Positions 46,425 to 49,663 of a DNA stretch of 64,000 nucleotides are shown here, in pieces. Every line of letters begins with the position of its first letter. Within the stretch, counting starts at the first letter, position 1. Both the position numbers and the translations under genes were made by a program. Source of the DNA: Eledone cirrhosa (lineage: Eukaryota); assembly GCA_964016885.1 (NCBI GenBank), contig OZ024742.1, positions 324,508,001-324,572,000 of the forward strand, written 5' to 3'. The notes below the pieces were generated by a model that was given only the letters and a program-made list of their open reading frames with translations, ran no database searches and was not told where the DNA came from.

Positions 46425-48189
46425 TATATATATATATATATATATCTTTCTCTGAGTCACACACACACAACACATTCACATACACCCTTTTCTCTGCTCT
46501 CTCTGACACATAGGCATACGCATGTTGTGGTATATTGGGCAAATTAATAGAACATCAGATAGAATCTCCGCAGTGTTTGAGTATTGGTCTCTCTGTGCTT
46601 TGAGTTCTAATTGCCCCGAAAGACCACTGTTGCATATTCTTTCGGGATCAATAAATAAGATCGGCTTGCGGAATTGATAGCGCATCAACAACTTTATAGT
46701 TCACTTGAATTATTTTCCTTTCATCATATATTTTATAATGTAAGAAAGTTGTCTTAGTATTCAATAGGAAAACGACTCATAACAGAGGTCCAGTGCCCAT
46801 ATATGAAATAATTATTTTTCTTGGAACAATATCCAATTTTCCCTCAATCATATGCTGTTGATTTAAAATGTAAGGAATGTACATATTGAAAGGACATAGC
46901 TTTCCCTAGACTGTTACTTCAAAAACGAAGAACGTGATGGTCACGTTTGGAATGCCTTTGGATGATAGGTAAGCTTCATCACAGAGCACATAATTGTCAG
47001 AGCCAATAAAAATGGAGATATAATGCTTTGCCTTATTCTTCCTAGTATTGTGGTGAAATTATATTATATCATTTCACTTCCACCTTCTCAACCGTCTCTT
47101 CCCAGGTAGGAATCTACAACTGGAAATTGATACATTTCGCCATAGTTTAAAATGACCACGACTAATCCCTATATGAGAACGGTGTCCATACGACTTCATA
47201 AAGAGATAATAAACCATGGGTGAATGAATGGATGCTTGGTCAAAGGTCCCCTGGCAGTAAATATTAAAAATATCAATAACAACCAATTTATATTCCAAAT
47301 TAAGAGCTTGAAAAAAAATTAGAGTCTGTGATTTTCTTGTCTTTATCGAGGACAATATTTGCATAACAAACACAATCAACATTAAGCCCCCGATTCCACT
47401 CCATTCGAAGACAATATCATCATTAGAAGATATCTACTCCTCCCGCTATCGATCTGAATGTGGATATTGTAAATGATTCAGAGATGAATTATATCTAGTT
47501 GATCTGACATTTCTGACGTCTGCCAAACTATGAAATATAAATGGCTTACATATTGGAGATAATTATCCTCATGATACTTGTGAAAACAATAAAAATAATA
47601 ATAAATTAAAGAGCTAAAACATTACAGAGCCAAAGGAATAGGCAACATAAGCAATCAATTAAAGAAAAACAATTTCAAAACCACAAAGAATAAGAATGCA
47701 GTGCAGTGATGCAGCACCAGCTGCGCTATTTGCGAAAACCCCTCATAATCGTTTGAATTCCCAGTTGTGGAACTTAATTTCATGGAATAACTTTAGAAAG
47801 TTTCATGTTTCACTCTTTTATAGGCATAGAATTATAAACGCACAACTACACACACACACACACACACACACACACACACACACACACACACACACACACA
47901 CACACACACACACACACACACACACACACACACACACACACACACACACACGCATGCTACTGTACGTCTGTATACATATATGTATGTACGTATACATACA
48001 TACTTACATTTAAGTAAGTGCCATACTAAGAGTGAGAAATAAAATTTCGTTTTCATTTTTTTTCAACTTATCGTTTTCGGTATGCCTGACCGATTTAACT
48101 CACTCAATATGCAAATTAGGCTGCTCAGCCGTTAATTTTCATAAGGAAAGTATATACTTTCGAACGTTCAACTATCTGGCAGATTGGTA

Positions 48190-48234
48190 AACGGTGCTGA
48201 TGATAGCTAACAAGCTTGAAACTAGTACATCGTT
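48190..48234 (+). ncRNA. Type I hammerhead, 451-bp unit copy 1
   Basis: AACGGTG-CTGATGA-tAGCT(aaca)AGCTt-GAAA-CTAG-TA-CATCGTT; GUA site. Confidence 0.88.
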
Positions 48235-48640
48235 CCTGTGTCAGTGTTGAACAAAAAGGTGACGTGGTTGCCTTAACACCGTATGGCATAAATTCAGGCT
48301 GTTCAGTTTGTTGACAAACGAACAAAGCGGCGTTATAATAAGCGTCCGCTAAACTGATGCGTGCATATATGTATGTGTACCTGTATATATATATATATAT
48401 ATGCATGCTACTGTACGTCTGTATACATATATGTATGTACGTATACATACATACTTACATTTAAGTAAGTGCCATACTAAGAGTGAGAAATGAAATTTCG
48501 TTTTCATTTTTTTCCAACTTATCGTTTTCGGTATGCCTGACCGATTTAACTCACACAATATGCAAATTAGGCTGCTCAGCCGTTAATTTTCATAAGGAAA
48601 TTATATACTTTCGAACGTTCAACTATCTGGCAGATGGGTA

Positions 48641-48685
48641 AACGGTGCTGATGATAGCTAACAAGCTTGAAACTAGTACATCGTT
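48641..48685 (+). ncRNA. Type I hammerhead, 451-bp unit copy 2
   Basis: Identical to 48190-48234. Confidence 0.88.
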
Positions 48686-49663
48686 CCTGTGTCAGTGTTG
48701 AACAAAAAGGTGACGTGGTTGCCTTAACACCGTATGGCATAAATTCAGCTGTTCAGTTTGTTGACAAACGAACAAAGCGGCGTTATAATAAGCGTCCGCT
48801 AAACTGATGCGTGCATATATGTATGTGTACCTGTATGTATATATATATATATATATGTGTGGCTAAGGGGAGTTAATACACTTTATGCTTTAAACATTTT
48901 CTTGGAGGATGCGCATCACCATAGAAATTAGGGTCTATATTGTGACACATTATAATAGCTAGGTATAGAAACCCCGGAGTTACCTCCCCGCATGCATTAA
49001 CTCCCCTTAGCCACACACACACTTCCGGGTGGTATTCAATGGCGTTTCTCGAAACGTAACAGCCTCCTGTATTGAACTAAAGAACACCAGACTACGATCT
49101 CTAACTGGATTGTCAAACGCTCAATATCGGATTGTCGTGGATTATGTGAGGGGCATATAATCGAAAAATACACTCCCCTGACCATGAAAATGTCGAAGTA
49201 CATGAAATACTTGACATCCCTTCGCTGTGCATCTCCAATACTTTTAACACTTTTAATGCTTGCACTATTTTTAATGCTTATAACATTTCTCCACACACAG
49301 ACTATATCAATCATATAAAGAATTTGCCACCAGATCTACCAACCTAATACTCTTGTTTACCTACCTAAGTGCCTCTACCACACATATCTCTCTGCCACAC
49401 TATATAAACAAGACGCACATGCGTGACACACATATAACATTTGCACTATATAACCGCTTATCTTCATGTTGTATTTTAACCTGTATTTTTGATTTTTGAT
49501 TGTACCTCTTAATATAAATGTAATCTCGAAGTGTGTACTGCCACTCTAAATTCTGTAATGAATGTTGACCCACAATGTTTGAATATGTATCAATGTTTGA
49601 ATATGTATCGGTATGTCTCTCGGCTGAAAAGGAGGTCATATAACTGTCCATGCATTAATAAAT

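Follow-up and report, generated by a model that had tools for sequence, protein, structure and literature searches.

The 64,000-nucleotide window analysed here (contig OZ024742.1, positions 324,508,001 to 324,572,000, of the Eledone cirrhosa assembly GCA_964016885.1) is rich in microsatellites, with 107 tandem-repeat rows and a GC content mostly of 25–40%, and carries two arrays of tandem units with hammerhead ribozyme motifs, which we call families A and B. Family A comprises 4.1 copies of a 463-nt unit (12282–14191), copies 2, 3 and 4 differing from copy 1 at 1, 0 and 4 sites, respectively (99–100% identity). Family B comprises 2.0 copies of a 451-nt unit, beginning at 47952 after (AC)52; its unique sequence extends to 48833, with a TA run beyond (48834–48856). 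The two B copies are 98.6% alike across 432 nt and differ by six substitutions and one 1-nt indel (seven sites), the terminal TA run being longer in copy 2. GC content is 0.366 and 0.367 for the 451-nt and 463-nt units. No open reading frame of at least 110 amino acids lies within an A or B unit, a frame through the CA repeat overlapping the first 62 nt of B; judged from the frames and the tandem structure, both families are non-coding, whole-unit tandems rather than arrangements of two long terminal repeats (LTRs) around an internal region. No target-site duplication, an optional feature of such elements when longer than 4 bp, was seen in the 30-nt flanks of A or B, where microsatellites may mask one. 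Searching the window with a two-sequence profile returned both arrays, an inverted piece of A and microsatellite noise, and no further A or B copies. By every sequence feature examined, A and B belong to the known class of non-LTR retrozymes: a complete type I hammerhead recurs in two or more successive tandem units of each family, the criterion used for retrozymes in a recent preprint (bioRxiv 10.64898/2026.07.22.740005; here and below, papers are cited from the part of their text that was available, unless another scope is given).

When cut at the predicted cleavage site, the A and B units are colinear from end to end, with 297 of 489 alignment columns identical (61%), or 297 of 425 ungapped columns (70%). 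In all families, unit position 1 is the base directly following the predicted ribozyme cut. The global alignment scored z = 16.6, and z = 13.1 after removal of the ribozyme, and none of 500 dinucleotide shuffles reached either value. The best local score outside the ribozyme was equalled by one shuffle in 500, and plain BLAST returned two clear blocks only, one of 59 nt at 78% identity and the 57-nt ribozyme at 75%. On the strength of the whole-unit alignment, we regard A and B as subfamilies that diverged within one lineage.

A descriptor of the type I hammerhead, scanned over the whole window and over 30 locally shuffled windows, gave 17 matches in the former and none in any of the latter; such a density, 17 motifs in 64 kb, makes it probable that copies are very numerous in the genome. 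Complete type I hammerheads are present in both B units and in all four full A units, and the motifs of the two families align without gaps (numbering follows the standard scheme, as used in PMC4209133). The core, the internal loop of helix I (GUAA/UC), loop 2 (UAACAA) and an ACUAGU palindrome, present in six copies, are identical in A and B. In the canonical register provided by the Rfam HH9 alignment, helix I has 6 bp with an internal loop and helix II has 4 bp closed by UAACAA. Among these ten pairs, four are the same in A and B, five are changed on both sides yet remain paired, and one is lost, G10.1–C11.1 of A being replaced by U–U at the base of helix II in both B copies. Five two-sided changes were reached by 5 of 500 shuffles, in a comparison of three sequences of which two are near-identical. 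In B copy 1, where helix III is palindromic, one distal helix I pair is also U–U. The conserved core, an NUH cleavage site, the 6-bp helix I, the 4-bp helix II and the loop bases all agree with the definition of metazoan type I hammerheads (PMC4209133), which also includes the G10.1–C11.1 pair that B lacks. The A hammerhead scored 29.3 bits against Rfam HH9 (E = 4.6e-5). At gathering level, Rfam reported only a 5S rRNA and a tRNA-like match in the whole window; microRNA-family matches in E-value scans fell on TA/CA hairpins and were dismissed as effects of composition.

Helix III of both families consists of one pair and a palindromic tetraloop, computed at about +5.5 kcal/mol and hence unfavourable in a monomer. 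In a two-unit transcript, freeing both ribozymes would cost 3.0–4.2 kcal/mol and the palindrome duplex would gain −4.8 kcal/mol, computed energies that match the double-hammerhead arrangement reported for animal repeats (PMC4209133). We infer that the A and B ribozymes are active, and the retention of catalytic and loop bases across 39% divergence implies that cleavage was selected.

Conservation appears to reach beyond the ribozyme. The predicted circular folds of A and B have energies of −150.1 kcal/mol (z = −9.8) and −134.5 kcal/mol (z = −5.2), with none of 40 shuffles as good; the opposite strands fold less strongly (z = −5.8 and −3.7, 40 shuffles each), and the predicted monomer is 67% paired. 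When the 128 differing aligned sites of B were filled with random letters, the energy was −101.7 ± 7.9 kcal/mol, and no randomised sequence (0/150) attained that of the real unit. Similarly, real B has 13 of A's 22 helices in common with it, as against 3.8 ± 2.1 for randomised B (0/150). A consensus fold of the two sequences (24 of 87 pairs with two-sided changes) was not taken as evidence, because such a fold picks pairs that fit both sequences. These models suggest that conservation extends to the predicted fold of the whole unit and, further, that the body of the RNA may have a function. A predicted 21-bp helix spans the junction of the two B copies, so the RNA unit would be continuous there; the shared helices could form in a linear multimer too, and the fold thus does not demand a circle.

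The longest runs identical in A and B are a 12-nt block containing an octamer and its 11-nt pairing partner, about 60–100 nt upstream of the core. The octamer occurs in all six A and B units as one arm of a predicted hairpin, with conservation not beyond chance (P = 0.17 for two such runs) and with no match to the octamer-hairpin pattern in prokaryotic genome contigs. The hairpin is a possible protein-binding site or promoter: a newt repeat with a promoter of small nuclear RNA (snRNA) type is cited in PMC2220036, and no mollusc proximal sequence element turned up in the literature.

Much of an earlier sequence-only reading of the B locus holds. It had described a 451-nt tandem dimer related to A by divergence, naming the lack of alignment outside the ribozyme as one outcome that would speak against its view; the dimer is there, and so is the alignment with the ribozyme removed. 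Its stems, its palindrome and the change of the cleavage site from GUC to GUA were all recovered, and its view that the ribozyme is conserved across subfamilies agrees with compensation of five of the six changed pairs in helices I and II. Two descriptions needed amendment. The start at 47952 is right, but the end proposed at 48836 falls inside the TA run; the stems do change as described, but in the corrected register given above, and the U–U of B had been overlooked.

Table 1 Coordinates of retrozyme-related features and the Penelope-like element in the window (HH9, Rfam family Hammerhead_HH9)
Feature	Position	Strand	Remarks
Inverted piece of A unit (173–246)	12206..12279	-	74 nt, 100% identical to copies 1, 3 and 4
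A array	12282..14191	+	Hammerhead cores at 12471, 12934, 13397 and 13860; 3' end at a T-tract, then (AT)n
C insertion	30968..32093	.	Inverted pieces placed head to head, with three hammerhead motifs; (TA)n at either side
C insertion	36820..37450	-	Single unit with terminal redundancy; (TA)n at either side
Penelope-like element, Hydra-clade motifs	37575..40919	+	Broken, 5'-truncated; 3' end at (TA)n
C insertion	45440..45979	.	Twin-priming geometry: inverted 40–179, forward 183 to 61; (TA)n on both sides
B left flank, (AC)52	47848..47951	.	No target-site duplication seen
B unit copy 1	47952..48402	+	451 nt, begins at unit position 176; internal TA run 48384–48402 at end
Octamer hairpin	48108..48143; second copy 48559–48594	+	Arms letter-identical in A and B
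Hammerhead, B copy 1	48183..48239	+	Core 48197, GUA site, predicted cut after 48227; HH9 18.1 bits, E 0.19
Predicted 21-bp helix	48359..48408	+	Unit 132–152 with 161–181; TA run forms one arm; mean pair probability 0.81
B unit copy 2	48403..48856	+	Unique to 48833, TA run to 48856
Hammerhead, B copy 2	48634..48690	+	Predicted cut after 48678; HH9 18.5 bits, E 0.14
C dimer and inverted piece	54926..56123	-	TA-rich runs on both sides

Directly to the right of the B TA run lies an element resembling a miniature inverted-repeat transposable element (48856–49017), with 22-nt terminal inverted repeats and no second copy in the window. Within the B unit, 48311–48339 (+) matches the bacterial sigma-70 consensus at 12 of 12 positions, with no counterpart in A; the match is probably due to chance and, being to a bacterial consensus, is irrelevant to the animal host, but it could matter if the unit were cloned. 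B had no match in a phage collection and two in a plasmid collection, both confined to the TA hairpin.

The positions at which the arrays begin and end bear on how they were inserted. The forward arrays begin at A241–244 and B176 and end at A301 (equivalent to B295) and B157–175; none of these points is the cleavage site. The forward A array and the inverted piece of its unit adjoin and overlap by 3–6 nt, forming a 5' inversion of twin-priming geometry, which has been described for L1 as priming from both target strands (PMC12016303). Counting this inversion, A173/A177 align to B172/B176, so that the 5'-most template points of the two families lie 4 nt apart, at the tip of a long alternating purine–pyrimidine hairpin. 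Such proximity would arise by chance in about 2% of cases (post hoc arithmetic on two insertions), and may represent chance, a run-off hotspot or a fixed RNA end. The 3' ends of A and B are about 120–140 nt of unit apart.

A third hammerhead family, C (521–522-nt unit), has four insertions in the window and served as a multi-copy proxy for the behaviour of ends, though it may behave differently from A and B. It does not align with A or B (z = −1.0 and 0.5), and the similar end numbers (C 174–179, A 173, B 176) were therefore not treated as homologous. Its seven 3'-type ends fall at unit positions 61 (three), 179 (three) and 33 (one), which suggests that priming sites are restricted rather than freely permuted. 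The 5' junctions vary (40/183, 232/421, about 48/54 and near 20–30), and one insertion requires a template extending 22 nt beyond one unit. The C hammerhead has a long helix II and a 10-nt palindromic helix III, and at least three subfamilies, 70–75% alike, can be distinguished; a conserved palindrome resembling an E-box lies upstream of the core, at a distance of about 165 nt, and one copy of the dimer near 55 kb has a broken core (AGAUGA). A 5S rRNA copy (54707–54825, +, 88 bits) adjoins the TA run that holds this dimer. A 10-nt motif with a splice-donor-like sequence occurs near 48010–48019 in the B unit, at 37440–37450, and in C units just downstream of the cut, in families that are otherwise unalignable.

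Taken together, the junctions of the three families are of the type associated with Penelope-like elements. A has an inversion and one (TA)n end, B has a (TA)n 3' end and no inversion, and three of the four C insertions are inverted, with TA runs after all seven C 3'-type ends (one run short and degenerate, another following a local duplication). Inversions are thus present in 4 of 6 insertions, and 9 of 10 3'-type ends abut (TA)n, compared with 1.9% of window positions; the latter count includes the two qualified C cases and leaves out the window's Penelope element and an insertion at 50.9 kb. Targeting of (TA)n and 5' inverted copies have both been described for Penelope-like elements (PMC8557442). 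In vitro work with a purified Penelope-like protein showed nicking and extension on each strand of AT-rich DNA, and the same enzyme began copying at fixed internal positions, used mostly uncleaved RNA and did not need ribozyme cleavage (PMC11167929). Nicking of both strands and fixed internal starts would explain the junctions without a circle. This anole enzyme started without target homology (PMC11167929), whereas the A, B and C ends show short AU matches. Junction style alone makes a Penelope-like element the candidate type of mobilising partner.

These results also bear on the second part of the sequence-only reading, which had stressed that the two arrays start and end at different points of the unit and had seen in this the trace of a circular template. 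Forward starts and 3' ends do differ, but the offset at the 5' side mostly disappears once the 74-nt inversion of A is counted. Units are entered and left at different points of a common cyclic order, as proposed; that the ends imply a circle no longer follows, given the inversion and the clustered ends of C. Because the Penelope-like reverse transcriptase (RT) starts inside its RNA and prefers uncleaved RNA (PMC11167929), internal starts on a linear tandem transcript would yield the same offsets.

The sole Penelope-like element of the window has its RT followed by a GIY-YIG-type region in overlapping frames (37853–39364 and 39312–39851), with its final 338 nt repeated in inverse orientation on the 5' side (37575–37912), and 94 homologues were found. 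Its placement in the Hydra clade rests on motifs, as defined in section 11 of PMC8557442: RT before endonuclease, a CxCx5C linker, CxxC, CxH, a DKT-like motif and a (TA)n target, with RWK absent and DRT in place of DKT. Among 40 long homologues, DK(T/S) is present in all and CxCx5C in 30. The frames had no Pfam match. A hammerhead-like motif in the terminal repeat of the element (40765 and 37729) was rejected, as neither helix III nor the site was convincing. Five inserts of 130–400 nt (3706–3832, 30555–30756, 46019–46422, 52287–52484 and 53425–53618) have head-to-head inversions, TA runs at both ends and a fixed 3' end in common, and resemble truncated Penelope 3' ends.

Elsewhere in the window, further hammerhead-like sequences were seen. 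A single type I hammerhead at 43160–43235 (−), with a palindromic helix III (AUGCAU) and a 7-bp helix I, lies in an insert of about 230 nt between microsatellites; another stands at the end of an insert of about 120 nt between TA runs (50915–51040, −) and has a true 4-bp helix III, U–U at the base of helix II and a GUA site. A motif at 33520–33595 (+) has a helix I mismatch and fails the strict descriptor, and one at 57443 (−), with a long helix II and an AT palindrome, lies downstream of a tRNA-like sequence (57685–57756). Two near-perfect long palindromes, 27758–28062 (171-nt arms) and 56277–56714 (arms of about 219 nt, each with a hammerhead-like core), may be similar insertions in fold-back form. 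Helitron-like regions for a PIF1 helicase, both broken, occupy 15776–17835 and 4635–5156 (+); the helicase frame at 16571–17518 had its best named matches in Octopus bimaculoides (64–68%), other named taxa reaching at most 58%, which by itself would make an octopod host likely, with the reservation that this marker belongs to a transposon. A broken region resembling the RT of a long interspersed nuclear element (LINE) extends over 23834–26449 (+).

We consider it probable that A and B are subfamilies of a non-LTR retrozyme: non-autonomous elements with a conserved branched RNA and a type I hammerhead, inserted in the manner of Penelope-like elements with internal priming. Whole-unit homology, an intact core, covarying helices, a palindromic one-pair helix III, the inversion of A and (TA)n at the 3' ends are present in the sequence. 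By analogy with known retrozymes, the tandem copies would be transcribed, two ribozymes would pair through ACUAGU and cut, and the monomer would be ligated into a circle by a host ligase; such a circular RNA step is plausible, retrozyme circles having been shown in coral, mussel and axolotl (PMC7229834). As the junctions suggest, a Penelope-like endonuclease/RT, possibly of the Hydra clade, would then nick (TA)n DNA and copying would begin within the unit at a site that contains AU, namely the unit's own TA run in B and an AU after a U-tract in A. More than one unit would be copied, with occasional second-strand priming giving rise to inversions, and the genomic end points would reflect sites of priming and run-off. 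These end points do not discriminate a circle from an uncleaved tandem transcript, since internal priming on the latter explains them equally well.

Several observations weigh against this interpretation. A, B and C match the window's only Penelope element in TA runs only. Neither the inverted end of A nor that of the Penelope element itself adjoins (TA)n, and TA runs at ends could have grown after insertion. LINEs make 5' inversions too (PMC12016303), and the window holds a LINE-like RT fragment. A and B offer one insertion each for study. On the side of the ribozyme, both families score under the Rfam gathering threshold (52 bits for HH9), B combines two weakening features (the one-pair helix III and the U–U in helix II), 79-nt ribozyme windows of B fold no better than shuffles (z about −0.9), and eight of nine Xenopus retrozyme dimers showed no cleavage in vitro (bioRxiv 10.64898/2026.07.22.740005). 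Finally, covariation at single pairs of the predicted fold is weak in a sequence-only alignment: 24 of 52 changed pairs are kept versus 17.3 expected (51 of 2000 randomisations), and 12 changes are two-sided versus 9.3 (341 of 2000), partly because helices slip in register.

Regarding the form of the template, the proposal that a monomeric circular RNA was entered at free positions, with the offset of the arrays as its evidence, has in our view somewhat less than an even chance. The A and B insertions exceed one unit and cross intact cleavage sites without starting or ending there, their 3' ends are far apart in the unit, the four A copies are nearly identical, a circle would naturally supply the 22 nt over one unit that one C template requires, and circles are known from other animals. 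Set against free entry are the 4-nt spacing of the 5'-most points of A and B (post hoc, two cases), the concentration of six of the seven C ends at two fixed positions, and the activity of the Penelope-like enzyme on unprocessed RNA.

That same enzyme behaviour, seen with the anole element in vitro, fits a template in the form of an uncleaved linear tandem transcript, as in Penelope pseudo-LTRs, with a slow or protein-assisted ribozyme and circles, if any, as by-products. The weak helix III of both units, the U–U of B, the fixed internal end points of C and the 5'-most point common to A and B all point in this direction. However, four sites would have to stay uncut for an insertion of 4.1 units, unless the array expanded afterwards, as the copy mutations (0, 1, 0 and 4) allow, and the catalytic and loop bases kept in both subfamilies imply selection for cleavage. 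We hold this to be less likely than not.

It is unlikely, in our estimation, that autonomous Penelope-like elements gave rise to the units as detached pseudo-LTRs or 3' ends, which went in as truncated copies, were then duplicated on site by unequal crossing-over and have no RNA cycle of their own. An origin of this kind has been proposed for Xenopus retrozymes (bioRxiv 10.64898/2026.07.22.740005); the junctions are of Penelope type, and B, an exact dimer, has a microsatellite on either side, where unequal exchange is favoured. Yet the units lack homology to the Penelope element of the window (a comparison with one element), the ribozyme has canonical 6-bp and 4-bp helices and loop–loop bases rather than the minimal Penelope form (PMC4209133), the whole-unit fold is kept between subfamilies, and the B junction falls inside a helix. 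Highly improbable is an interpretation as ordinary linear short interspersed nuclear elements (SINEs) or satellites whose ends are fixed and whose ribozyme-like motif is dead or arose by accident: B does begin and end at the same TA run like a tailed SINE, and its ribozyme is below Rfam thresholds, but the shuffled windows gave no descriptor match, the helices carry compensatory changes, A ends elsewhere in the unit, and a helix crosses the B boundary.

Extending the preferred interpretation of retrozymes inserted by a Penelope-like enzyme, we put forward, as a conjecture somewhat more doubtful than not, that octopods carry several retrozyme families of 450–520 nt whose whole RNA architecture is selected and which depend for insertion on Hydra-clade Penelope-like enzymes acting in trans, with nicks in both (TA)n strands and copying from a few fixed internal sites. 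If so, the junctions would be a genomic record both of the enzyme that moves animal retrozymes and of the form of its template, and the octamer hairpin could be an enzyme-binding site or an internal promoter. As the class is known, a hammerhead repeat is in itself unsurprising; the value of these loci lies rather in a predicted whole-unit fold kept by subfamilies 39% apart, and in TA targets, 5' inversions and fixed ends that bear on which autonomous element mobilises animal retrozymes. A 2020 review noted that animal retrozyme sequences give no motif from which to deduce the mobiliser (PMC7761336), and the 2026 preprint favours Penelope-like mobilisers from distribution and trees, its available text containing none of the words 'junction', 'inversion' or 'target site' (bioRxiv 10.64898/2026.07.22.740005).

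We found no paper describing cephalopod retrozymes in a search outside which most subscription literature and key supplements lay. In the giant squid genome, 235 hammerhead matches were counted, with no analysis in the passage concerned (PMC6962438), and a 2026 repeat annotation of Octopus vulgaris (PMC13282606) does not use 'hammerhead', 'ribozyme' or 'retrozyme' in its text or in one supplement. The animal non-LTR retrozymes of Cervera and de la Pena (2020, PMC7229834), whose text as covered includes no cephalopod case and whose main text lacks 'inverted' and 'microsatellite', resemble A and B in their non-coding tandem units with one type I hammerhead each, a GC content below 50%, a self-paired predicted monomer and the presence of Penelope-like elements alongside. 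At 451–463 nt, the A and B units are at or just above the 150–450 bp given there and within the 51–972 bp of the 2026 preprint.

Among individual ribozymes, the axolotl HHR_Amex1 has, like B, a single-pair helix III with a palindromic tetraloop, and HHR_Amex2 has, like B, U–U at the base of helix II (PMC7229834); both cut better as dimers, and B unites the two features in one ribozyme. The best ribozyme match in Rfam, Hammerhead_HH9 (RF02275), agrees with A and B in the register of helices I and II, of the internal loop and of a loop 2 of six bases; A and B differ from it in their scores (18–29 bits; gathering threshold 52) and in a helix III reduced to a palindrome. Newt satellite 2 has a reported snRNA-type promoter (cited in PMC2220036), and an octamer is present in A and B. 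Finally, Penelope-like elements of the Hydra clade (Craig et al. 2021, PMC8557442) and the anole Poseidon (Frangieh et al. 2024, PMC11167929) share (TA)n or AT-rich targets and partial tandems, and Penelope-like elements, as here, show 5' inverted copies, fixed internal initiation and type I hammerheads; A and B differ from them in being non-coding.

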